Source: Candidatus Rifleibacteriota bacterium (GTDB taxonomy: Bacteria > Muiribacteriota > Ozemobacteria > Ozemobacterales > Ozemobacteraceae). Taken from it: a DNA stretch of 64,000 nt. The stretch spans positions 30,592-94,591 of the forward strand of contig JAHISQ010000034.1 of the NCBI GenBank assembly GCA_018818125.1, given 5' to 3'. The notes under the pieces were generated by a model that was given only the letters and a program-made list of their open reading frames with translations, ran no database searches and was not told the origin of the DNA. Both the position numbers and the translations under genes were made by a program. Each line of letters opens with the position of its first letter. The stretch's first letter is position 1. Positions 1,970 to 12,488 of this stretch are shown one piece after another.

Positions 1970-2284
1970 TTAACGCAGTTTTTCAACGGCCTCCGGGTGC
2001 TTCTTAAGATAGGCCTGGCGAAAAGTCTGTGCGTCTTCATGTTCAGCAAATGCGCTATTCCAGCGATACCCAGCCACGGTAACTGCCAGCAGAGATATGA
2101 TCAATATGATCATTGGCAAAACTATATGTTGCCCCAGGGGCTTTTTGCAGTCGGGGCACTCGTCTACCTGAAGTTTGCAATATTCGCATTTTATAGTTGT
2201 CATATTACCTGGCCGTCTTTGGGTTTTGATAATTAATGCAGAGATACATGATATTCTCGAAAGCTGCAAACTCCAGATTAACAA
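1970..2284 (-). CDS. Small zinc-ribbon membrane protein; start more likely at MTTIKCEY (around 2203), giving about 77 aa
   Basis: CEYC...CPDC is a CxxC-x-CxxC zinc ribbon, followed by one transmembrane helix (IVLPMIILIISLLAVTVAGY). It lies directly downstream of the 304-aa zinc-ribbon/TM gene, and the two genes abut. Confidence 0.45.
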   Translation of the reverse strand: MLIWSLQLSRISCISALIIKTQRRPGNMTTIKCEYCKLQVDECPDCKKPLGQHIVLPMIILIISLLAVTVAGYRWNSAFAEHEDAQTFRQAYLKKHPEAVEKLR

Positions 2285-3119
2285 CTGATTCTGGAGTATT
2301 CCAACAGTAGCTTATAATACGATTATGGGCCATTACTGACTCAACTTTTTGCTTAGCGCTTAAACTGGCATCCAGCTCGCCCAGACTACGCTCCAAAGGT
2401 TCTCCCAACTGAAAAACCAGAGAGCTGTACGTTTCGGAAAAAAATTGTTCTATACTTTGAAGATCGCAAAGTGCAGTGTTACGTGGGATCGGAAAAATTG
2501 CAAAATCGCTTTGTATAACCCTGTCAGCACTTTCGCCAATCTTGGGAACCTTGGCGAGGTCGAGCTGTTCCAAACCCTGGCACTTGTGCCCGAAAAAAAT
2601 GTATCGACCTGCGATGAGACGGCTTGAAGAAAAATCGTATCTGATAACTGTGTCAAAGTTGCTAATTCTATCAATGTAGTCAAGATTGTATGCGCTACTA
2701 TCATTTAGCAATTCAGCCTTTTCTTCTTCCACAATGCGACTCCGCGCCCCACCCCACAGGGCAGCTCTAAAATCCGCCGTTTGCCCTCTGATCGGGCTCT
2801 TTTTTGGAGTTTGTTTTGTGTCTGGATCATTTTTGGCGGCTTTGGGAGGAGTCGGCAATTTAACTGCCTCTATTTTCGACTTCTTCTCTGAGATTTCAGA
2901 AGCTTCGTTAAATGGTTTTAGTGCTACAGCTGTACCTTCGCGCAATTCAAGCTCAAGCATAAAAAAAATGACAGCAACAGCAAATACTACCGCTGAAATT
3001 TGATAGAGCAAAAGAGCCATCACGTCGGCTATTCGCTGTTTACAACCAGGACAAACATTAATTTCTTTATTACATTCCGGGCAGTAGTACATTGCCACAC
3101 GATAACATACATTTTTCAA
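2205..3119 (-). CDS. Zinc-ribbon + single-TM protein with an extracytoplasmic domain of about 240 aa (anti-sigma-like architecture, family unassigned)
   Basis: N-terminal CPECNKEINVCPGC, then a TM helix (LLLYQISAVVFAVAVIFFML), then a soluble domain with no recognised motif. The 5' end and promoter region are duplicated at 8150-8240. Confidence 0.6.
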   Translation of the reverse strand: MKNVCYRVAMYYCPECNKEINVCPGCKQRIADVMALLLYQISAVVFAVAVIFFMLELELREGTAVALKPFNEASEISEKKSKIEAVKLPTPPKAAKNDPDTKQTPKKSPIRGQTADFRAALWGGARSRIVEEEKAELLNDSSAYNLDYIDRISNFDTVIRYDFSSSRLIAGRYIFFGHKCQGLEQLDLAKVPKIGESADRVIQSDFAIFPIPRNTALCDLQSIEQFFSETYSSLVFQLGEPLERSLGELDASLSAKQKVESVMAHNRIISYCWNTPESVVNLEFAAFENIMYLCINYQNPKTAR

Positions 3120-3190
3120 AGTATAAAATATTAATTATGTGTGGATTTCTGCCGATATATTGTTAGAAATAAAAATATTCGGAGGCAAAA

Positions 3191-3529
3191 ATGCAATCTT
3201 TTACTCGCAGAAGTTTATCGGCAATAGTCTTACTGGCAATGGTGTTTTCGTTTTTTAGCGGCATTTTGCATGCCAACAGCAAGCATGATATGTTTGAGAC
3301 CAGCGAGAAGATTGCACGTCTGAAAGCGGAAATTCGTGCGGCTCACGAAGAGCTCCGACGCCTCAACGAAGAGGGTGGAGAACAGGCTCAGGAGCAGGCA
3401 CAGGTATTAATGGCCCAGATCAAGGAATTGAAGGCAGAGCTTAAAGTTCTCGAGCAGAGTCTTGATAGCATGAAAAAAGGCGGCTCGAAACTGAGAAGCG
3501 ACAAAGTCGACCCAAGATATCGACGTTGA
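3191..3529 (+). CDS. Small secreted coiled-coil protein (112 aa)
   Basis: GGAGG ribosome-binding site 9 nt upstream. Signal peptide (LSAIVLLAMVFSFFSGILHA). Heptad-like charged helix (AEIRAAHEELRRLNEE...IKELKAELKVLEQ). A degenerate second copy lies at 8328-8562. Confidence 0.6.
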   Translation: MQSFTRRSLSAIVLLAMVFSFFSGILHANSKHDMFETSEKIARLKAEIRAAHEELRRLNEEGGEQAQEQAQVLMAQIKELKAELKVLEQSLDSMKKGGSKLRSDKVDPRYRR

Positions 3530-3565
3530 GAAATGCAGTAGCCCGCCACTAAGAGAGCTGGCAAA

Positions 3566-3608
3566 GCAAAACCGCAGAGACTACTATGAGTCTCTGCGGT
3601 TTTGTTTT
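3566..3608. terminator. Bidirectional rho-independent terminator
   Basis: Perfect hairpin CCGCAGAGACT / AGTCTCTGCGG with an A-tract on the 5' side and a T-tract on the 3' side. It terminates the small + strand gene and the convergent minus-strand operon. Confidence 0.65.
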
Positions 3609-3653
3609 AACAGATTAAAAAATCTACTGACCGGGGGAAGCACCACATATGCG

Positions 3654-4295
3654 CTATTTGTTCAACGTTGGCGCGAGAATCAACATGAAGACCACTATTG
3701 CCCCAGACAGGAAAAAAGCGCCGATCATGATCAACGCAAGTTCGACATTTCCCTTCGCCGATTCCTGAATGAAGGGTGTCAGGAAAACCATCGGCGAAAA
3801 TGCCGCCGCACCGCCGAGAAGGGCAAAAATCAGACGAATCAGATCCCCTATTCCGTATTTGAAACTCTTCTTGGCTGGCTTTCTTACATAGGGGCCGGGA
3901 AAATCGGAACGCGGGCGGACAACCGCAATCTCTTCTGCCGGAGCCTGTTCGGAAATACTTTCGACAACAGTATTATGCCATTCGCCGCTCGAAAAACCGT
4001 TCACAACCTCGGCAGGAGAAATCTCAAGATCCCGTTCCTCCCAGAAGAGTTTTCCCTCATCCGCAATCAGGGTCATTTTCTCCGCCGCTCCATCCAGGAA
4101 GACGTGAGGCGGACACAGACCGTCTTCAGGCCAACTCGGCGGTGGAACCAGTTGCCGGAAATCCGCCAAGAACCCTTGAAGATCTTCCAGGGAATACTCG
4201 CCCAGAGACACAATCGCCGAGCCTCCCGTGGCACGGGTGAGATCGGAAGAGACTCCCTTCACCGAAAGTTTTACTGCCATTGAAGCGACCTCCAT
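3654..4295 (-). CDS. Membrane protein: cytoplasmic domain of about 150 aa plus two C-terminal TM helices. Start may be MAVKLSV, 5 codons in.
   Basis: ORF in the GC-rich cassette. Two C-terminal hydrophobic helices (IRLIFALLGGAAAFSPMVFL, LALIMIGAFFLSGAIVVFMLIL). No recognised motif. Confidence 0.5.
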   Translation of the reverse strand: MEVASMAVKLSVKGVSSDLTRATGGSAIVSLGEYSLEDLQGFLADFRQLVPPPSWPEDGLCPPHVFLDGAAEKMTLIADEGKLFWEERDLEISPAEVVNGFSSGEWHNTVVESISEQAPAEEIAVVRPRSDFPGPYVRKPAKKSFKYGIGDLIRLIFALLGGAAAFSPMVFLTPFIQESAKGNVELALIMIGAFFLSGAIVVFMLILAPTLNK

Positions 4296-4308
4296 TGGTT
4301 TCTGTGAA

Positions 4309-7242
4309 TCATTCAGGGCGACGACAGCTCACCCTGACAGGAATGAAAGGGGCATAGCAGGCTATATCCCCGCCTTCCAAGTCTGCTTCGAAATCGACTC
4401 GGAAAACATCCTTCAAATCTATACTCCGATCCCAGGTTTGTCGGAACGGCCCCTTGGCTTGCCGCTCGAATAACGTGATCGTCTCCGGTTGCTGTTTTTC
4501 CCGCCACAACGTAATTTTCCCACGACAAAAGAATTCAGGAGGAGGATCATCATCTATCCCCGTCGCCTCCCCGGAGAACCTGAACCGGTCGCCCGTAATG
4601 ATTCCGCTGGCATTCCCCCCGAACGGACCCCAGCTGGATTGCTTATAATCAACTTTCACCCCTTCGGTTTGAAACCGCATGGTAAGATACTCTCTCGTAA
4701 GTGTGATTGCCGGGCCGACCTCGTTGCCTGACGGCGTCGAACGAACCTCTTTGGTTGTATTCGATTTATCCGGTTCATCTGGTTCAGAGGAGTCGGCTTT
4801 TTTCACCGAGACCCTCAGGGTTGAGGTAACTTGTTTTCCCGAGGTATCGACCGCCCTGACCTGAAGAGTATATTCCCCCACCTTGCTCGGCGCTTTGAAC
4901 ATAATCGTCTTGCGAACAGCCCCATCGGACTGCGGCTGGCCCTGGAGCACTTCCTTATCGTTGCCCATGGGTCCGCGAAACATGACACGATACGCTGCGA
5001 CCGCCCCGGAGACCTCCACGGACAGATCCTTTTCCTGGTTGGGTTCGAAACTTCGCGGACCGGTAAGATCAATGGCAAAGCCGGGAACGACCTTGAAGGA
5101 ATGCTTTGCTGAAGCGGAGAATACGGTGCCGCCGGCTTCGACCGTCACCTCACACATTCCCGTTTTCTTGGGAGCGGTGAAGGAAAGGGAAAACCTCTTG
5201 TTCGTAATTTTCCCGGAGACAGCCTTTGATACGCCGCTTCCCTTAAGAAAGACATCCCATGGGGGATTGGGTTTAAGCAAAGGCGACCCGCCTTCCAGGC
5301 TGAACCCGAGCGTGACGTTGCTCCCCGCAGGAACCTGCTTCGGTGCATTCAGAAAAAGAACCTGAAATGGTGGCCCCACCGCGACCTCAAGTTCCGAACG
5401 TGCGGTCTTTTTATCGGCGCTCTCCACTTCCGCCCAGATGGTAAAGGCTCCAGGCTTTTGACCCGCCGTAACCGGCAGCGTATGATTTCGCCCGGAGATT
5501 TTTTGAACGGCGGATTTTCCTGGAAGAGTTCCGCCGGTTGTCACGGTAAAAGGAGGTGTTCCTTCAAAAACCGTTACTTCAACCCGTGCCGTCTGGTTGA
5601 AACCGAGAAATTTCGGAGCGGCAACAACCACATTGAACGCCGCCGAAACATTAATCTGAGCTGAAACCTGGGCAGTCAGTTTCCCTTTATCCCCATCAGA
5701 CGCTTCGATTCGTGCCGTAATCGCGTGAGCTCCAGGTTTAACAGGAGCTTTAAAAGAAAATGGAATGACCGGATCGAATTTCCCCGAAAAACGGAGAGGA
5801 TTTTTTTGTCCCGGAACTTCAATGGTGACAGAAAACGGGGGAATTCCCTTCTCGATGATGAGTGCACCCTCGACAACTTCTCCGGCATCAGCTTCTCCGG
5901 GCAGTTCGAAACCTGCCTCGATCGTTTCTTTCACGGCCGGCAGGCCGAGACGCTCCCGCAGAGTTTTCAGCAAATCGTTTCTAGATTTTGCCAGATACTG
6001 ACGCAAGGAGATCGTCTCCGGTGATTGTGGCCCCTGACGCTGAATCAGGTCTTCGAGTTCCAGGCGTGATTTTACATGGAGCGCAAGCAGCGACCGTCCT
6101 TCAAGCATAACCGACTGATACCTGGATGCATCCAAACCCAGTTCCCGGGCGAGCCCTCCGGCAAGATTCACCCGCAACTTCATGTAGGCAAGAATATCCT
6201 GGTCAAGAGCCTTGTCTCGAGCCTTTCCACTGCCGAGACCACTACGGTGGATGGGCACTTCTTTTTCATACATTTCGACCGCCGCCACCAGAATTTCCTT
6301 TTCCTTCGCGGCGGCATCCGTCTCAGATTTATCGCGGGCTTGAAGATATCTGCCCAGCCGTCTCAACCGCTCCTCATCACCTTCGTCAGGCCAACCTAGA
6401 TTTTGAGCAAGCGTGCGCAGGTGGCCACTTTTTTCGATTCCCTTCATTCCGGTTTCCTGAGTTGTAGACATTAAAATGGTCGCCAGGTCATCAGGGTTCT
6501 GGGTTTTATCGACCCGCCACGCGTTGTAAATGGCATCCATCCCGGGGCCGAAAAAATTCTCCTCAAACCCCTGCCTCACGACAACCACAGCCGCCTGGAT
6601 CGTTTGAACCTGGGGAAAGAATTCCGCTGCTTTCTCGCCGGCGGCCTTCCACTGCTTATCTGACAACAGACCGGCAATCTCAGAAACGGTCTTGATCTTG
6701 TCAGCATTTTGAATAACCTCTCCAAGAACCGCCCCCATAACATTCAACCGGCCGCTTCCGCTCTTCATCAATGAAAGGCTGTCATCGATCTTGAGCTGGT
6801 TCAGGGGAATCGCCTTCTCGAGTCCGTGCAGAACCGATGTACCAAAAAGTGTCGCCAATTCCGTCTGGGCTTCCGCAGGATTGCCGTCGGCGATAGCGTC
6901 ACCGATCTTGATCAGATCGTCCTTGCGTTCTTCCAGAACCCCCACCATTTTCTGGTACAGCTCGCTCTTTATCTCTTCGTTGTTGAGTTTTCCCAGGATC
7001 GTGGTGGCGACGTAATCCTTGAACTTCCCCTTCAAAGCTTCGATCACCTTATCTTTGGCAGCCTGACTGAGGGGGATTGCCGCGGAACCACGTTTGACAC
7101 TTTGAGAAAGGCGCTTGGCACTGCTCTCCAGGTCGGCGGGGGTGACCCCCGCAATTTTGGAGGAACGCCGTTGGCCAAAGGAACCGCCGGCAATCAGGAG
7201 GAATGTCGCAAGAAAAAACGCTGTCAGCCGAGATTTTTTCAT
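4309..7242 (-). CDS. Large secreted protein (about 977 aa): alpha-helical N-terminal region of roughly 450 aa followed by several repeated beta-rich segments of unassigned fold
   Basis: Signal peptide MKKSRLTAFFLATFLLIAGGSFG. Its ATG overlaps the stop of the upstream 251-aa gene as ATGA. The C-terminal half has repeated segments of about 90-100 aa rich in V, T, G and P with recurring GTPPFTVT / GPPFQVLFL-like strands. Coding GC is visibly higher than in the flanks. Confidence 0.7.
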   Translation of the reverse strand: MKKSRLTAFFLATFLLIAGGSFGQRRSSKIAGVTPADLESSAKRLSQSVKRGSAAIPLSQAAKDKVIEALKGKFKDYVATTILGKLNNEEIKSELYQKMVGVLEERKDDLIKIGDAIADGNPAEAQTELATLFGTSVLHGLEKAIPLNQLKIDDSLSLMKSGSGRLNVMGAVLGEVIQNADKIKTVSEIAGLLSDKQWKAAGEKAAEFFPQVQTIQAAVVVVRQGFEENFFGPGMDAIYNAWRVDKTQNPDDLATILMSTTQETGMKGIEKSGHLRTLAQNLGWPDEGDEERLRRLGRYLQARDKSETDAAAKEKEILVAAVEMYEKEVPIHRSGLGSGKARDKALDQDILAYMKLRVNLAGGLARELGLDASRYQSVMLEGRSLLALHVKSRLELEDLIQRQGPQSPETISLRQYLAKSRNDLLKTLRERLGLPAVKETIEAGFELPGEADAGEVVEGALIIEKGIPPFSVTIEVPGQKNPLRFSGKFDPVIPFSFKAPVKPGAHAITARIEASDGDKGKLTAQVSAQINVSAAFNVVVAAPKFLGFNQTARVEVTVFEGTPPFTVTTGGTLPGKSAVQKISGRNHTLPVTAGQKPGAFTIWAEVESADKKTARSELEVAVGPPFQVLFLNAPKQVPAGSNVTLGFSLEGGSPLLKPNPPWDVFLKGSGVSKAVSGKITNKRFSLSFTAPKKTGMCEVTVEAGGTVFSASAKHSFKVVPGFAIDLTGPRSFEPNQEKDLSVEVSGAVAAYRVMFRGPMGNDKEVLQGQPQSDGAVRKTIMFKAPSKVGEYTLQVRAVDTSGKQVTSTLRVSVKKADSSEPDEPDKSNTTKEVRSTPSGNEVGPAITLTREYLTMRFQTEGVKVDYKQSSWGPFGGNASGIITGDRFRFSGEATGIDDDPPPEFFCRGKITLWREKQQPETITLFERQAKGPFRQTWDRSIDLKDVFRVDFEADLEGGDIACYAPFIPVRVSCRRPE

Positions 7243-7994
7243 AGAATGTCGCTCCATGAGACGACTGAATCGCCTTCTGACAGCTCTTGGGTGAGCTTCA
7301 TGTCGAGATCTGTGATCTTCTCCAATAGTATTTTTTGCCGGTTTAGAGGGAGACGCAGAACATCATCCCGGATCATTCGCAGTTGTTGGGCCTTCTGAGC
7401 GGCATCTAGGGGCAGGTTGCTGTTTTCGAGACGGTCGAGAGCCGAAAAGAACTGTCTCACGGTCGCATCCGACCGCAGTTTTCCGGCCCCTGCACCGGTT
7501 CCGGACTCCCGGAAGTTTCCGATGAAAAACAACAAAACCAGGATTGCCGCAACAAAAAGAACGGCCCCAACCCACCCTTTTGCAGGTGCTCTTTCCACCA
7601 CCGCGCCGGTTGTCATTGGGGAATTGAGACGAGAAAGCGCGGAGCAAGTTTCCCCTGGATCCTTGCTTGCAGCCGAACCATCAATCTTGACGAGCATTCG
7701 ATCCACAAAATCAAGGGTCGCTTGAACGGAAGCCATTCGCACAGTATTTCCGGAAGGAAACGTCTGCAACAACACCCCGTTTTCCACGATAAAAGTAAAG
7801 GCAAATCTTCGTGGATCGACGATCATCGCCGCGCTTTCACCGGCAGAACCATTTGGAGCTGCGCTGATCCGGAACAACGCGGCAAAGAATTGCTTCAACC
7901 GCAACCGGGATACTTCTCCAACCTGTATGACCTGACCGGAGAAAGAGGGTTGAAAATCAGAGCCGAAACCCCTCAATGAAACATCATACCGCAT
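7239..7994 (-). CDS. Bitopic membrane protein (251 aa), function unknown
   Basis: Single central TM helix (WVGAVLFVAAILVLLFFIGNF). Translationally coupled to the 977-aa gene. Shares the GC-rich composition of the cassette. Confidence 0.5.
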   Translation of the reverse strand: MRYDVSLRGFGSDFQPSFSGQVIQVGEVSRLRLKQFFAALFRISAAPNGSAGESAAMIVDPRRFAFTFIVENGVLLQTFPSGNTVRMASVQATLDFVDRMLVKIDGSAASKDPGETCSALSRLNSPMTTGAVVERAPAKGWVGAVLFVAAILVLLFFIGNFRESGTGAGAGKLRSDATVRQFFSALDRLENSNLPLDAAQKAQQLRMIRDDVLRLPLNRQKILLEKITDLDMKLTQELSEGDSVVSWSDIL

Positions 7995-8240
7995 TAAACG
8001 TCCTCCCCTCCGTCACTTCGCAATGAACTACCACGCTGTTCAGATTTCAATGGTCGAACCCGGCAAAATCCCGGGTCAATCGCAACGCTTAACGGCGGCA
8101 GGCTAACAAGAAGCTCAGCGAACATTACCGCAGAAACCTGGCAGAGCAAAATAGCCGTCACGTCGATTATTTGCCGATTACAGCCTGAGCAGGATGCAAT
8201 TTATTTCTTACATTCCTGGCAGTAGTACATTTCCACACGA
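7995..8240 (-). pseudogene. Disrupted paralog of the zinc-ribbon/TM gene (N-terminal part only, with an internal stop and frameshift)
   Basis: Near-identical to the nucleotides of the first ~35 codons of the 2205-3119 gene and its upstream region. A 5-nt indel gives MYYCQECKK-stop. Homology resumes in the +1 frame (CSGCNRQIIDVTAILLCQVSAV...) and ends at a TAA that overlaps the ATG of the 251-aa ORF. Confidence 0.5.
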
Positions 8241-8327
8241 TAGCATAATTTTCTTGAAATATAAAATGTCTAATATGCGCGAATTTCTGTCAATATATTG
8301 TTAGAAAGGAAAATATTCGTAGGCGAA

Positions 8328-8562
8328 ATGGCAATCTTTTACCCGCAGAAGTTTATCTGCAATAGTTTTACTGGCAATGGTGTTTTAGTTTTGTGGCAGT
8401 ATTTTGCATGCCAACAGCAAGCATGATATGTTTGAGACCAGCGAGATGATTGCACGTCTGAAAGCGGAGATTCGTGCAGTTCATGAAAAGCTCCGACGCC
8501 TCAACGAGAAAGGCGTCTCGAAACTGAGAAGCGACAAAGTCGATTCAAGATATCGACGTTGA
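8328..8562 (+). pseudogene. Degenerate copy of the small secreted coiled-coil gene
   Basis: Aligns with 3191-3529 but has an early in-frame stop after about 26 codons, because a 1-nt change turns TTTTCG into TTTTAG. It also carries an internal deletion of about 115 nt that removes the coiled-coil core. The flanking promoter and terminator sequences are conserved. Confidence 0.5.
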
Positions 8563-8600
8563 GAAATGCAGTAGCTCGCCACTAAGAGAGCGTGCAAAGC

Positions 8601-8642
8601 AAAACCGCAGAGACTTTATTAGTCTCTGCGGTTCTATTTTTA
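8601..8642. terminator. Bidirectional rho-independent terminator (second copy of the 3566-3608 hairpin)
   Basis: CCGCAGAGACT..AGTCTCTGCGG hairpin flanked by A and T tracts. It also lies just downstream of the 3' end of the C11 peptidase gene at 8657. Confidence 0.55.
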
Positions 8643-8656
8643 AAGGAGTGTAAGGC

Positions 8657-10015
8657 TTATTTGTTTTTAAGTTCGCTGATCAGATTGCAAACGTTAGTCT
8701 GAGTAGCTTCATCGAGACCGCCTTCAACAAATACTCTGAAGTTCAGTTTGGCAATAACGTTGGCGCTAACTTCGCGGTTCTTTTCATTGGCAGTAGAAAC
8801 ATAATCTACCAGGCTTGAAACATCACCACGGCTGATATCAGCAACCAGAGTCTTAACAGCGGCTTTTTTGTAGTAATCTTTAACCATGGTTTCCCACATA
8901 CAATCTTTGGCAAAGGCCAGGTCTTTGTATTCTGCAGAAAAGCTGTAAGAAGAAGTCGGGAAGTAGATGGCCAGGCCAGTAGCATTCTTGGTATTGTAAC
9001 CACTCAGGCCATTGCAAACAACGGTCTTAGCATAAGCAGCTTCGAGTTTCTTGGCCGCAGTCTGGAAACCTTCGTCCTTGATACTTTCTTTGGCCAGAGC
9101 CACGAAGTGACCAAGATCAATGTTGGTTCTGTAATAGAATTTCTGAACACGGTTAAGAGCAGACTTGAATTCGACGGCATATTCGCCGGCCATAGATGCT
9201 TTTGCAAAGCCGTTAATAGCGTCATTCAGGTTATTGATCTCGCTGCATTTGAGAGCAGACTGGGTGCCTGATGAGTTACCAGCGCTACCACCGTTGTAAG
9301 AAATAGCATACTGCTTAACAATAACTGTTGCCAGCTGCTCAGGAGTGATGCCTTTTTTGAAGTTCTCGATAATTTCTTTGTAGGGATAGCCTTCACCAGG
9401 TTCAGTTTCCTGAGAAGCTATAAAATAGTCACAGCCATCTTTTACTGCATAAGCAACTTCCATCATCTGCATAAGGCAAGCATCGAAAGATAGAACATCA
9501 AGTTTTTTGCCAAGTGCAGTTTCGATTTCTTTCAAAGCAACAGTCAGCTGATTGGTAGTGATGTGGTTGTTTGATGAATCATCATAAGAAATACCTTTGA
9601 TGATTTCGTCATTAGCGTTTTTCCAACCGGAGCCATGGTTCCAGATAATTGAACAATAATGTTTGGCCGGATAGGCTTTGGCAGTTTCAGTAACAAATTT
9701 TACATATTCGCGATAGTCGCCCATGTCAAGCTCGCCCATCTCTTTAACAACCTGGATGCCATCTTTAGCAACATAGTTAAGAGTAGCCGGAGCATTTTCG
9801 CGGTCGATAAGGCACACAATGTTAATATTATCGTTTGATCCGCCACCAGCTACCATTTCTTGGAGATCGCCCACGCCGAAAGAATCAAGATTGTTATCGG
9901 CATTCAAAAAAACCATGAATGTCCATTCTTTTTGGGCAGCGGCGCCAGCTGGTGTACAAAAACAAAGTGCAAAGAAAGCAATGGCTAAAATACTAATGAC
10001 TCGTTTCATCTTCAA
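8657..10015 (-). CDS. Secreted clostripain-like cysteine peptidase (family C11)
   Basis: Signal peptide. Motifs WTFMVFLNADNNLD, catalytic His in IIWNHGSGW and catalytic Cys in LSFDACLMQMMEV match the C11 His-Cys dyad pattern. Confidence 0.8.
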   Translation of the reverse strand: MKMKRVISILAIAFFALCFCTPAGAAAQKEWTFMVFLNADNNLDSFGVGDLQEMVAGGGSNDNINIVCLIDRENAPATLNYVAKDGIQVVKEMGELDMGDYREYVKFVTETAKAYPAKHYCSIIWNHGSGWKNANDEIIKGISYDDSSNNHITTNQLTVALKEIETALGKKLDVLSFDACLMQMMEVAYAVKDGCDYFIASQETEPGEGYPYKEIIENFKKGITPEQLATVIVKQYAISYNGGSAGNSSGTQSALKCSEINNLNDAINGFAKASMAGEYAVEFKSALNRVQKFYYRTNIDLGHFVALAKESIKDEGFQTAAKKLEAAYAKTVVCNGLSGYNTKNATGLAIYFPTSSYSFSAEYKDLAFAKDCMWETMVKDYYKKAAVKTLVADISRGDVSSLVDYVSTANEKNREVSANVIAKLNFRVFVEGGLDEATQTNVCNLISELKNK

Positions 10016-10279: not shown

Positions 10280-11650
10280 TCAGCGGGCTATAGAGCCAGA
10301 AAGCTGCTTGAAAAGTCCGCTAAATTCTTCTGAGAGAGACTCAGGCAATCCCTTTTCTGTATACATTTCATAGTTAAGCTCACGAATAATAAAGCGGTAG
10401 AAATCTGCATTTTCTGAATTGCTCATGGCGGAAGCAACCAGATTGCGCATCTCGTCAAGACTCCCTGCCTTGATCTCGCTGACAACATTTGCCGCTATAT
10501 CACGCTTGAGAAGAGTTTGAATCATTTCATCCCAGAGTGTCGCCTTGGCAAAGCTGAGTGTCAAATATTTGGCTTCAATCCGGAAGGTTGATGGCAGATA
10601 GATGGCGATACCCTTAGCGTTTTTAGTTGAATTACCAGTGTTTTTGCAGGCGATAACAGCAGCTTTGCCAGCAACCAGAAGCTTGTCGCAAGCAGTTTTT
10701 ACTGATTCATTGCTGCTCATGCGGGCTTTAAGTAATTCGGCGAAATGCAGCATGCTGATGTTTTCTGGGAAGTCGAACTTATGAGTGTTAGCCAAAACTT
10801 CTTTAACTTCGGTTGAGTATTTGCCGCTCATAAGTGCTTTGGCCAGACCGTTTATGGCGTCAACCATTTTATCGAATTTGCTCATATCAACAGCTGACTG
10901 AGTAGATTCATCGTAACCCTGACTGCCACCAGTATATGATTTTGAAAAAGCGTTAACCCAGTTGATCGCAAAGGCTGAAGGAGTCATGCCTTTTTTAACG
11001 CCGACGAGAATATCGTCGTAAGGAGCACCTTTGCCAGGCTCAAGTTCTTCAGAGGCGACCATAAACCCGACGTTGTCTTTAACAGCGTGACCAACTTCGA
11101 CCATCTGCATCAGACACGCATCCATGTTAAGAACGTCAATTTTCTGGCCAAGAATCTCGACCATTTTGGCAGTAGCCAAAGACAACTGAGCGCTAGTTAT
11201 ATGATTGTTAGAAGAGTCGTCATAAGAGATGCCACGGAAAATGTTGTTTAATTTCTTGCCCTTCCAGCCGGAGCCATGGTTCCAGATGGTGAAACTGTAG
11301 TGTTTTGCTGGATAATTCTCTTTTACAAAGCTGGCGAACTTGACAAGTTCGTTGTAATCACCCATATCAACTTCGCCCAAGTCTTTAATCTTGGTAATAT
11401 TATTCTTTTCTATGAAATTAATCTGCGCCGGGCCGCGTTCGCGGTCAATCAAAGTAACAACGTTAAGGTTTGCGTTGGAGCCAACACGAGACATTTCTGT
11501 CTGATCTTCAACTCCAAATTCGTCAAGGTTGTTGTCGGCATTGAGAAAAACTGCTACGGTCCAGTCCTTGAGCTGCTGCGCGCTTGCAGGCGTAAGAACG
11601 ACGAACATAAACAGGGTGGTTACTGCGACGATACTTGCTACTCGCTTCAT
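10280..11650 (-). CDS. Secreted clostripain-like cysteine peptidase (family C11), paralog of 8657-10015
   Basis: Signal peptide. WTVAVFLNADNNLD, FTIWNHGSGW and LNMDACLMQMVEV motifs. The sequence is collinear with the neighbouring paralog across its full length. Confidence 0.8.
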   Translation of the reverse strand: MKRVASIVAVTTLFMFVVLTPASAQQLKDWTVAVFLNADNNLDEFGVEDQTEMSRVGSNANLNVVTLIDRERGPAQINFIEKNNITKIKDLGEVDMGDYNELVKFASFVKENYPAKHYSFTIWNHGSGWKGKKLNNIFRGISYDDSSNNHITSAQLSLATAKMVEILGQKIDVLNMDACLMQMVEVGHAVKDNVGFMVASEELEPGKGAPYDDILVGVKKGMTPSAFAINWVNAFSKSYTGGSQGYDESTQSAVDMSKFDKMVDAINGLAKALMSGKYSTEVKEVLANTHKFDFPENISMLHFAELLKARMSSNESVKTACDKLLVAGKAAVIACKNTGNSTKNAKGIAIYLPSTFRIEAKYLTLSFAKATLWDEMIQTLLKRDIAANVVSEIKAGSLDEMRNLVASAMSNSENADFYRFIIRELNYEMYTEKGLPESLSEEFSGLFKQLSGSIAR

Positions 11651-12026: not shown

Positions 12027-12488
12027 ATGGAAAAGCTTAATTTTATCGTAGCGACTAAAGAGATTGTAGACGAACTCTTTGAATTTGAAAAAGTCTGTTT
12101 TGAAAACAAGCCAGATCAGTTTTCGAAACGCAGCTTGCGCCACCTTATCGTTTCGCCGACCAGTCGAACCATTATCATTCGCAACGAAAAAGGCAAGATA
12201 TGTGCTGCCGCAATTGGTCTGCTGCGGCATTTTAAAATACCTTCAGGGCGCATCTACAAAATCGGAGTATTGACTGAGTTTGCACGGCGCGGAGTTGGCA
12301 CCGCCCTGATAGAAGAAATCGAAAAATGGTTCAAAAACTCAGGAATGAAAAAAACATGCGCCGAGGTGCGTGAGAGTAACACACCTTCGCGACGCATGTT
12401 CGAGAAAAAGGGCTATGTTGAAACCAAAACGCTTTACTATTTTTACGCGGGCGGCGAAAACGCCGCCAAATATTGGAAAGATCTGTAA
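12027..12488 (+). CDS. GNAT family N-acetyltransferase
   Basis: Acetyl-CoA binding motif RRGVGTALIEEIEKWFKNSGMKK and the C-terminal stretch NTPSRRMFEKKGY. Length of 153 aa fits the family. Confidence 0.75.
   Translation: MEKLNFIVATKEIVDELFEFEKVCFENKPDQFSKRSLRHLIVSPTSRTIIIRNEKGKICAAAIGLLRHFKIPSGRIYKIGVLTEFARRGVGTALIEEIEKWFKNSGMKKTCAEVRESNTPSRRMFEKKGYVETKTLYYFYAGGENAAKYWKDL

Follow-up and report, generated by a model that had tools for sequence, protein, structure and literature searches.

The region between positions 1970 and 8645 of the DNA analysed here (the window, 64 kb from a Candidatus Riflebacteria MAG) is best explained as three separate things: an operon of a long and a short gene for zinc-knuckle membrane proteins, a unit for an exported coiled-coil protein (cc) and a block of genes bracketed by a duplication (Table 1). 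The reading that we favour, to which we assign a probability of roughly 0.55, combines a connector-type operon, a cc gene that is not its obligate partner and a duplication that is private to this genome. The locus is uncharacterised yet fairly ordinary.

Table 1. Features of the analysed region, in window coordinates
Feature	Coordinates	Strand	Remarks
Short gene (KKB51_04590)	1970..2203	(-)	77 aa; ORF; identical sequence present in NCBI
Long gene (KKB51_04595)	2205..3092	(-)	295 aa plus stop
Divergent intergenic region between long and cc genes	3093..3190		Conserved block in the cc-proximal half
cc gene (KKB51_04600)	3191..3529	(+)	112 aa, exported coiled coil (signal peptide or N-terminal anchor)
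Hairpin, likely bidirectional terminator	3558..3613		Lies where the cc and 213-aa genes converge
Three-gene block	3654..7994	(-)	Lies between the two copies of the direct repeat
Copy B of the long gene's 5' end, disabled	7994..8230	(-)	DNA-level match to copy A
Copy B of the intergenic region, cc pseudogene and terminator hairpin	8231..8645	(+)	DNA-level match to copy A

The long and short zinc-knuckle proteins

The long and short proteins both begin with a Cys4 motif followed by a TM helix, as described in the first-pass annotation, but the spacing between the two Cys pairs is x6 in both and not the x7-11 given there. The N-terminus of the short protein is MTTIKC-EY-C-KLQVDE-C-PD-C, and its CxxC-x6-CxxC knuckle and single TM helix are followed only by a conserved, predicted outer tail of ~30 aa (GYRW..A..EH..A..RQ.Y.KK.PE). 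Its orthologues in five genomes are 52–57% identical, and the four Cys residues are invariant. In the long protein, the segment CPEC-NKEINV-CPGC (Cys4 codons at 3042–3083) is followed by a TM helix (about 2955–3023), a conserved juxtamembrane helix, a low-complexity K/P/E-rich linker and an outer domain of ~190 aa (extracytoplasmic double-wing domain at 2208–2807). The 304-aa gene reported earlier is present as an ORF (2205–3119, minus strand), but conservation indicates that the methionine of the MYYC sequence at 3092 is almost certainly the start, which gives 295 aa. The deposited gene model begins at Met34, and the Cys4 knuckle is therefore left out of it.

Of the 540 ORFs in the window (six frames, at least 50 aa each), only these two genes and one junk frame contain the pattern C..C.{5,12}C..C, indicating that the motif is not due to chance. 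The Cys4 segments of the two proteins are detectably related, as shown by profile comparison (hhalign probability of 90.7%, E 1e-6, 26 columns) and by reciprocal cross-matches of 17–22 bits between the two knuckle HMMs. Sequence searches of both proteins against Pfam, NCBIfam, PADLOC, PHROGs and the PDB were all negative or sub-threshold. The CxxC-x6-CxxC motif is shorter than the classical zinc ribbons, none of which (zinc_ribbon_2, DZR and others) scored above the Pfam gathering threshold, the best zinc-family scores being 14.4 bits for DZR (threshold, 27.3) and 15.2 bits for zf-C3HC4_3 (threshold, 27), and the PDB matches of the knuckle were limited to the C-x2-C-x6-CPxC tail of RING domains (E about 0.1). 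The two proteins represent a real family of bitopic proteins with a Cys4 knuckle and one TM helix that has no family assignment, and the HMM check proposed in the first-pass annotation, which yielded only negative or sub-threshold Pfam and NCBIfam matches, agrees with its description of the family as uncharacterised.

A search with a profile of the long family retrieved about 90 clusters whose proteins are ~190 aa in length (E 2e-11 to 1e-3); the matches scored best at profile positions ~100–180. Nearly all of these relatives, which are aligned over the whole domain, have N-terminal signal or lipoprotein-like peptides, and the C-terminal domain of the long protein is therefore placed outside the cytoplasm. 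Cys4 sites require a reducing compartment, and the charges around the TM helices weakly favour an N-in orientation. From these features we infer an N-in bitopic topology, in which the knuckle, presumably zinc-bound, would lie in the cytoplasm; the predicted cytoplasmic part of the knuckle protein comprises only ~23 residues.

In a MAFFT alignment, 48 relatives align end to end with the C-terminal domain of the window's protein, with R14, W18 and E29 invariant, and the family motif is DFRxxxWGMSxxxVKxxEK ... KYGxP ... W.T..T.I.L. This profile-level similarity over the whole ~165-aa domain places it in an unnamed family of secreted/lipoprotein domains. The AF2 model of the full-length long protein was poor (pLDDT 41), and the confidence rose from 41 to 77.5 when the alignment of the outer-domain relatives was used. 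The outer domain has a predicted double-wing alpha+beta fold and belongs to a widespread secreted/lipoprotein family without a Pfam model. Its structural similarity to DUF4309 (YjgB) and the double-wing fold is at the fold level only; no Pfam match, including DUF4309, was obtained at E<=1 with the window's domain or with 49 relatives, and there was no significant Foldseek match. YjgB/DUF4309, YdcD, DcrB, PA1624 and Rhs/T6SS immunity proteins (double-wing or Mog1/PsbP-like) share about 10% identity with the domain, which differs from YjgB/DUF4309 and other double-wing domains by a lineage-specific insertion of ~35 aa. None of the double-wing matches points to an activity. DUF3157 (PF11355) was rejected as a family assignment; its weak matches in 6 of the 49 relatives fall on an N-terminal 'DDGTWxY' extension (residues ~7–59) outside the shared domain.

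In nine distinct genomes (33–64% identity, three different neighbourhoods), the long and short genes lay next to each other without exception, separated by 1 nt or overlapping by 4 nt, and the short gene was directly downstream of the long gene in all loci where the contig was long enough. To date, the operon is known almost exclusively from Riflebacteria/Rifleibacteriota MAGs. The unit that is conserved from genome to genome is the long–short operon.

The coiled-coil gene

The coiled-coil gene of ~110 aa described as facing the long gene was confirmed, and its product consists of an N-terminal hydrophobic signal or anchor followed by a coiled coil, with an invariant KHD motif just past the hydrophobic segment and a basic C-terminus. 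By eye, the hydrophobic segment ends in L-x-A, which is typical of a cleaved signal peptide. We found 31 relatives, most of which are unlabelled; all six with an organism label are from Riflebacteria/Rifleibacteriota or an 'uncultured bacterium'. The CpxP/Spy-like feel previously attributed to this protein was not borne out. The sequence contains no LTXXQ motif, this family is absent among the best 25 Pfam matches listed, and no such PDB chain was found at E<=10 with a 5-sequence profile. Although cc resembles CpxP/Spy in being small, exported and helical, it forms a continuous heptad coiled coil, in contrast to their helical hairpin cradle. All Pfam and NCBIfam matches of cc are sub-threshold and to coiled-coil or TM-plus-coil families (DivIC, 25.7 versus a cut-off of 28.9; FtsL_COG5462, 20.4 versus 50; ftsL_broad, 16.6 versus 42.45).

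The intergenic region between the long and cc genes shows 77% mean column identity among the orthologues of the closer clade (clade 1). Its cc-proximal conserved block (CCGATA..~20 nt..CGGAGG..ATG), which we read as the promoter/RBS region of cc itself, is also kept where mnmA, not the knuckle pair, lies upstream. At the other end of the gene, the hairpin at 3558..3613, with 25-nt arms that are 88% complementary, is likely to be a bidirectional terminator and belongs to the duplicated unit described below.

The co-occurrence of the two genes across genomes, proposed earlier as a check of the pairing, held in part. The divergent pairing of long and cc genes is kept in seven distinct genomes of the closer clade but breaks in both directions further out: two divergent genomes (L009 and L011) contain the long and short genes without cc within 6 kb, and cc occurs without knuckle genes within 5 kb in L016–L019, where mnmA fills the same syntenic slot. 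These loci were inspected over +/-5–6 kb, and cc and the pair could co-occur elsewhere in such 'decoupled' genomes. Within the closer clade, the flank beyond cc varies (Che operons or C11 peptidases) while cc still adjoins the long gene, and this steady adjacency would fit a functional link there. Taken as a whole, the upstream block, the terminator and the distribution suggest that cc is an independent monocistronic unit and not an obligate partner of the long and short genes.

A segmental duplication around a three-gene block

A direct duplication of ~640 bp, in which 2978–3613 matches 8116–8645, includes the 5' end of the long gene, the intergenic region, cc and the terminator. The two copies are 76–94% identical overall (76% in the 5' part of the long gene, 79% in the intergenic region, 88–93% in cc and 89% in the terminator). 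Copy B of the long gene reads MYYCQECKK*IASCSGCNRQIIDVTAILLCQVSAVMF... (MYYCQECKK*IASCSGC...), with an in-frame TAA at 8201–8203 between the two CxxC pairs; its similarity to copy A stops near 8116, and the stop codon of its reading frame overlaps, as TAATG, the start codon of a 251-aa gene. In copy B of cc, a 1-nt indel at the start codon (~8328) has removed the start, a TAG is present at 8386–8388 in the signal peptide, and 105 nt are deleted in frame; the residual ORF (8404–8562) has 52 aa. The terminator hairpin of this copy (8596–8640) was scored as terminator-like at 8603–8633.

The second copy is thus a pair of pseudogenes, with both genes disabled. The first-pass annotation had described a decayed copy facing its own coiled-coil gene; both copies exist, but they arose through a single duplication of DNA. 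Because one segmental duplication accounts for both, the two 'pairings' in the window represent one event and not two observations, and the repeated pairing does not stand as an argument for a partnership with cc.

The block bracketed by this repeat (about 4.4 kb) contains genes for proteins of 213 aa (3654–4295), 982 aa (4309–7257) and 251 aa (7239–7994), and its GC content is 0.53 versus 0.43–0.45 in the flanks. None of the three proteins has a significant Pfam, NCBIfam, PADLOC or PHROG match. The 982-aa protein has an N-terminal hydrophobic segment (a signal peptide by eye) and only weak, sub-threshold matches to Ig-like domains, and no relative of it was found in viral contigs; for the 251-aa protein, no homologue other than itself was found among 5.8 billion clusters. 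The block is absent from L006, the closest syntenic genome. The block together with the repeat is best explained by an event confined to this genome, either an insertion-duplication or a duplication-capture.

Proposed mechanism and alternative readings

By analogy with two described systems, we infer that the co-translated long–short pair may link envelope and cytoplasm. Its two members would be translationally coupled and assemble via contacts of the TM helices and the juxtamembrane helices. An envelope protein or ligand would be bound by the outer domain of the long protein, and the paired cytoplasmic knuckles, presumably zinc-bound, would dock a cytoplasmic partner. Like ZitP or GltJ, and unlike an anti-sigma factor, the pair would thereby act as a connector or anchor that spans the membrane. 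ZitP, a bitopic regulator of polarity and pili in Caulobacter crescentus, has a cytoplasmic zinc ribbon (CXXC-X19-CXXC, zinc_ribbon_5, PF13719) that binds PopZ and a long linker in the cytoplasm; its periplasmic domain (DUF3426) recruits CpaM (PMC5182063). As predicted for the long protein, ZitP has an N-terminal cytoplasmic Cys4 module, a single TM helix and a periplasmic domain; this domain, whose biochemical function is unknown, works by recruiting a partner, and ZitP is a connector, not an enzyme (PMC5182063). The long and short proteins differ from it in their x6 spacing, their cytoplasmic part of ~23 aa, an outer domain of another family and a co-encoded second, short paralogue, and the PopZ/CpaM context is not known here. 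They have no Pfam match, with none to zinc_ribbon_4/5 at E<=1, and depart from the ZitP spacing; no match to DUF3426 was found on the C-terminal domain of the long protein, which belongs to a different, unmodelled family. In GltJ, a membrane protein of the Myxococcus gliding machinery, a cytoplasmic zinc-ribbon (ZnR) domain binds MglB as a protein-docking switch, within a 377-residue cytoplasmic region of ZnR-linker-GYF organisation with Cys at 5, 8, 28 and 31 (PMC11135422). The two proteins described here have neither the GYF domain nor the linker, and Agl-Glt genes were not seen.

Several other readings were weighed against this connector-type operon. The knuckle proteins and the exported cc could form one unit, as first suggested, with cc serving as a ligand, chaperone or modulator of the outer domain. 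The divergent adjacency and the ~100-nt conserved intergenic region are kept in the seven clade-1 genomes despite the differing flank beyond cc, the predicted locations of the two products would bring them together outside the cytoplasm, and the duplication copied cc and the 5' end of the long gene together. However, this repeat is a single event whose long and cc copies are both dead, the operon is found without nearby cc in L009 and L011, and cc occurs without the pair in L016–L019, in the same slot and with mnmA upstream on the same strand; moreover, the upstream block of cc is conserved whatever its neighbour, and cc has its own terminator. We consider such a module unlikely. A division or envelope-growth set, in which cc would be an FtsL/DivIC/FtsB-like protein and the knuckle proteins accessory components of the divisome or elongasome, is less probable still. 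The best, sub-threshold matches of cc, to DivIC and FtsL, span the hydrophobic segment plus the coil, and cc resembles these proteins in its size (about 100 aa) and in its layout, in which a hydrophobic segment at the N-terminus runs straight into a leucine-zipper-like coiled coil outside the membrane; in addition, the clade-1 right flank contains envelope genes (LysM protein, PBP transpeptidase and LPG_synthase_TM). The scores are nevertheless below the curated cut-offs, dozens of unrelated coiled-coil families score alike, and the L-x-A end points to a probable cleavable signal peptide. There is no dcw cluster or other division gene cluster around cc, which is monocistronic and lies beside clostripain-like peptidase genes, and the envelope genes belong to other strands or operons and are missing from the clade-2 loci.

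Transmembrane anti-sigma factors of the ZAS type (zf-HC2), such as RsiW and RslA, combine a Cys-containing cytoplasmic N-terminus with a single TM helix and a sensing domain outside the cytoplasm, a layout like the one predicted here, and the first-pass annotation had drawn this comparison while noting that no sigma factor gene was nearby. If the long and short proteins acted in this way, the knuckle would sequester a sigma factor until an envelope signal arrived. Both proteins, however, lack the defining H-x3-C-x2-C motif and any upstream His, and have no helical anti-sigma domain of ~80 aa; their predicted cytoplasmic part comprises only ~23 residues. No match to zf-HC2 (PF13490) or any other anti-sigma model of Pfam or NCBIfam was found at E<=1, nor any anti-sigma PDB chain at E<=10. 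The absence of a neighbouring sigma factor gene was confirmed: no sigma-70/ECF gene adjoins the pair in the nine distinct loci, and no Sigma70 domain was detected in the scanned ORFs of at least 150 aa in the 64-kb window. The anti-sigma reading is therefore highly improbable. We regard as equally remote a role for the long protein as an immunity protein or inhibitor tethered to the membrane, a view prompted by the resemblance of its outer domain to Rhs/T6SS immunity proteins; the similarity is only at the fold level (about 10% identity), and the top match is YjgB, whose function is unknown. In no locus does a toxin, Rhs, T6SS or polymorphic-toxin gene adjoin the pair, the long gene is chromosomal and stably syntenic, and PADLOC gave no matches.

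A more far-reaching version of the connector, which we put forward as a doubtful possibility, is that the pair forms an undescribed heteromeric transmembrane connector or signalling device. The two minimal Cys4 knuckles (~20 residues each) would jointly form a zinc- or redox-dependent docking or sensing site for a cytoplasmic partner, controlled from outside by the double-wing domain, and in the closer Riflebacteria clade the exported cc could have been recruited as an extracellular modulator.

The value of these findings is modest. They define, for a candidate phylum without a cultured model, a lineage-specific membrane module of two genes, correct the deposited model of the long gene and tie the module to a widespread domain family that Pfam lacks and that deserves a model. 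They also illustrate that an attractive argument from 'repeated gene pairing' can be produced by a single segmental duplication combined with inherited synteny. Should the proposed mechanism be confirmed, this minimal-knuckle variant would extend the small set of bitopic zinc-finger connectors of bacteria represented by ZitP and GltJ.

Genes of the region and the paired Cys4 proteins

The region, from a Candidatus Riflebacteria MAG, carries locus tags KKB51_04590 to KKB51_04615 and the features listed in the table. Two of its genes encode single-pass membrane proteins with an N-terminal cysteine knuckle, hereafter long (KKB51_04595) and short (KKB51_04590), and the gene divergent from long, here named cc (KKB51_04600), encodes an exported coiled-coil protein.

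Features of the region in window coordinates
Feature	Position	Strand	Remarks
short	1970-2203	-	77 aa; MTTIK-C-EY-C-KLQVDE-C-PD-C, then TM helix
long	2205-3119	-	304-aa ORF; conserved MYYC methionine at 3092 is the real start (295 aa)
C-terminal domain of long (C-domain)	2208-2807	-	
repeat unit, copy A	2978-3613		
block upstream of cc	3140-3190	+	
cc	3191-3529	+	112 aa; hydrophobic N-terminal segment, then coiled coil
terminator hairpin	3558-3613		copy at 8596-8640; ends the repeat unit
three-gene block	3654-7994	-	
213-aa protein	3654-4295	-	
982-aa protein	4309-7257	-	
251-aa protein	7239-7994	-	
decayed copy	7994-8645	both	copy B of long 5' part and cc
repeat unit, copy B	8116-8645		
clostripain-like (Peptidase_C11) tandem paralogues	8657-10015, 10280-11650	-	
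GNAT acetyltransferase	12027-12488	+	

The MYYC start of long is used by all orthologues and by the JGI and ENA gene callers, and the TTG at 3119, from which the ORF finder began the gene, is not conserved. The NCBI model (271 aa) begins at Met34 and thereby loses the Cys4 knuckle. A 12-codon upstream ORF overlapping the start of long (MLSCGNVLLPGM*) was dropped, because an alignment read by eye showed that it is not conserved in a related genome (L001). In the 295-aa protein, the knuckle (CPEC-NKEINV-CPGC) precedes a TM helix (approximately residues 24-46) and a conserved helix; a K/P/E-rich linker then leads to a C-terminal domain of ~190 aa.

Both proteins have the Cys spacing CxxC-x6-CxxC, and a six-frame scan of the whole window (540 ORFs of 50 aa or more) found this motif in long, short and one junk frame only. 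Homology between the two knuckle segments is detectable by hhalign (probability 90.7%, E 1e-6) and through reciprocal HMM cross-hits. Neither protein was assigned to a family in Pfam, NCBIfam, PADLOC or PHROGs, where the knuckles gave only sub-threshold zinc-finger matches, the best being DZR (14.4 bits against a cut-off of 27.3) and a match to a RING tail; a PDB sequence search with the long-protein profile yielded nothing meaningful. The proposal in the first-pass annotation of an uncharacterised bitopic Cys4 family is thus borne out, as the genes and motifs are real and no library assigns either protein.

A single duplication and the three-gene block

The first-pass annotation had also counted two divergent knuckle/coiled-coil pairings as repeated evidence of a partnership. 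Repeat finding and pairwise alignment revealed that the unit from codon ~38 of long, through the intergenic region and the entire cc gene, up to the terminator hairpin is present twice, and that both genes of copy B are disabled. Its long is broken by a TAA at 8201-8203 (MYYCQECKK*IASCSGC...), and its cc has lost the start by a 1-nt indel and also shows a TAG at 8386-8388 and a 105-nt deletion. All four Cys codons are retained in copy B despite the disabling of both genes, and its reading frame ends on the start of the 251-aa gene in a TAATG overlap. Because the two pairings arose by one duplication event, they are not independent evidence of partnership: the genes and motifs of the original observation stand, and the repetition of the arrangement reduces to this event. 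Identity between the copies is graded, from 76% in the knuckle part and 79% in the intergenic region to 88% in the cc signal peptide, 93% in mature cc and 89% in the terminator. This gradient (76% to 93%) could reflect partial gene conversion, an already diverged donor or a recently inactivated third paralogue.

The direct repeat (~640 bp) brackets the three-gene block, the GC content of which is 0.53 versus 0.43-0.45 around it, and the duplicated promoter and leader now lie at the head of the block. None of its three proteins has a Pfam, NCBIfam, PADLOC or PHROG assignment; the 982-aa protein has no relatives in viral contigs, and a search of 5.8 billion clusters with the 251-aa protein recovered only itself. 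In L006, the closest syntenic genome, the block is absent and two small membrane genes occupy its place. Either a Campbell-type insertion-duplication or a capture accompanying a tandem duplication would, in our reading, account for the block; it resembles an insertion-duplication private to this genome. Whether copy B marks a paralogous ZR-251-982-213 operon present elsewhere was also considered; the 251-aa protein, as noted, is without relatives, as is the 982-aa protein in viral contigs.

Distribution of the long-short pair and of cc

Close relatives of long number 12 (56-64% identity), and the four with a named source are all Riflebacteria. Searching 1.84 billion representatives with a profile added a handful of full-length relatives (33-41% identity). 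The co-occurrence statistics comprise 13 distinct genomes, all loci being from MAGs or metagenome contigs with neighbourhoods covered to +/-5-6 kb; genome- and metagenome-contig scans gave two loci each, from the closer clade only. The order cc(-) <> long(+) short(+) is kept in seven distinct closer genomes (the window, L001, L004, L006, L007, L020 and L021), in which the flank past cc holds either chemotaxis operons or a pair of clostripain-like peptidases. Long and short are neighbours in L009 and L011 as well, the two divergent genomes whose contigs reach far enough; the genes are separated by 1 nt or overlap by 4 nt, the surrounding 6 kb contain no cc gene, and the divergent neighbour of long is a radical-SAM-like gene. 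The unit that travels together is therefore long plus short. The gene facing long in these two loci (L009 4931-5635 (-), L011 4789-5643 (-)) encodes a conserved protein of 234/284 aa with a CKWGxCSFCxY motif, and annotated Radical_SAM genes also lie nearby. The divergent long-protein cluster includes a member from a 'Clostridiales bacterium' MAG (PWR01_2091, clade 2, the divergent genomes); the family may extend past Rifleibacteriota, or this MAG may be loosely labelled, so its taxonomic range is uncertain.

Of the 31 members of the cc family, most carry no organism label; the six labelled ones are all Riflebacteria/Rifleibacteriota or 'uncultured bacterium'. In four more divergent Rifleibacteriota genomes (L016-L019), the gene order is ABC ATPase, ABC-2 permease, mnmA (tRNA 2-thiouridylase), cc on the same strand as mnmA, and then convergent C11 peptidases, with no zinc-knuckle gene within 5 kb of cc. 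There, mnmA fills the exact permease-cc slot held by the knuckle pair in the clade of the window, and the two form a clean gene-replacement polymorphism at a single syntenic position. A CCGATA..~20 nt..CGGAGG..ATG block upstream of cc, which is probably a promoter -10 region and a Shine-Dalgarno sequence, is conserved whether the pair or mnmA adjoins, and conservation of the entire 98-nt intergenic region reaches 77% across species that share only ~60% protein identity. Because the slot is shared without the pair, the pair is found without cc and the upstream block is kept in both contexts, cc is a self-contained monocistronic gene, and its place beside the pair is a matter of position, in one clade only. 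Given that the pair has no cc within 6 kb in L009 and L011, and cc no pair within 5 kb in L016-L019, the cross-genome argument for a coiled-coil partner does not hold over the distances covered. Two C11 genes also adjoin cc in L006, L016, L017 and L019, accompanied by the GNAT gene in L006, L017 and L019; the C11/GNAT block is thus conserved beside cc more widely than the knuckle pair.

The suggested likeness of cc to CpxP/Spy failed as well: no such family stood among the best 25 Pfam matches listed, and a PDB profile search gave nothing meaningful. Library matches were sub-threshold TM-plus-coil ones (DivIC 25.7 versus 28.9, FtsL 20.4 versus 50), plus many non-specific coiled-coil matches; in our reading, the JGI 'EnvC' label on some cc homologues is of the same non-specific kind.

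The C-domain and a working model

The C-domain matches ~90 clusters of ~190-aa proteins (P0021-P0111; E 2e-11 to 1e-3), nearly all of which start with signal or lipoprotein-like peptides. The alignment spans the whole domain (~165 aa) with a shared motif, DFRxxxWGMSxxxVKxxEK...KYGxP...W.T..T.I.L, and some relatives contain the domain twice or fused to other modules. No Pfam model was found for this widespread family, and a PDB sequence search with its profile yielded nothing meaningful. A link to DUF3157 was rejected, since the weak matches map to an N-terminal extension unrelated to the domain. For full-length long, AF2 gave an unusable model (pLDDT 41, 12-sequence alignment); for the C-domain, a 49-sequence alignment gave a usable and confident one (pLDDT 77.5, pTM 0.74). 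The C-domain model has two helix-plus-sheet halves and a low-confidence insertion of ~35 aa specific to this lineage, and the predicted fold is double-wing/YjgB-like. Foldseek against the PDB returned nothing significant (best E 0.04). As modelled, the C-domain appears to be a generic extracytoplasmic binding fold without an enzymatic signature.

The tight stop-start coupling, a knuckle common to both and the strong conservation of their juxtamembrane segments suggest joint production of long and short, which would function as a complex. By homology, the C-domain would lie outside the cytoplasm; because Cys4 sites also need the reducing cytoplasm, long is predicted to be N-in with its Cys4 site cytoplasmic. 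The working model with the best support is a connector across the membrane, in which the outer double-wing domain would bind a component of the envelope, while a cytoplasmic partner would dock on the two minimal knuckles, presumably zinc-bound. In ZitP, a zinc ribbon binds PopZ and the periplasmic domain recruits CpaM (PMC5182063); the zinc-ribbon domain of GltJ is a second characterised precedent (PMC11135422). Long and short differ from both in Cys spacing and lack the zinc_ribbon_5 and DUF3426 domains of ZitP and the GYF domain of GltJ, and membership in either family was rejected on spacing and domains. The anti-sigma analogy drawn by the first-pass annotation disagrees with all tests run on motif, domain and gene context: the HxxxCxxC motif and an anti-sigma domain are both absent, and none of nine loci has a sigma gene. 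The annotation itself had reported no sigma gene nearby, and none was present among the window ORFs of at least 150 aa that were scanned.

The earlier interpretation is therefore partly supported, the coiled-coil partner and the anti-sigma and CpxP analogies not being upheld. By analogy, long and short may belong to a known kind, the bitopic zinc-finger membrane proteins, and the main value of the locus lies in an unmodelled secreted domain family and in minimal paired knuckles.
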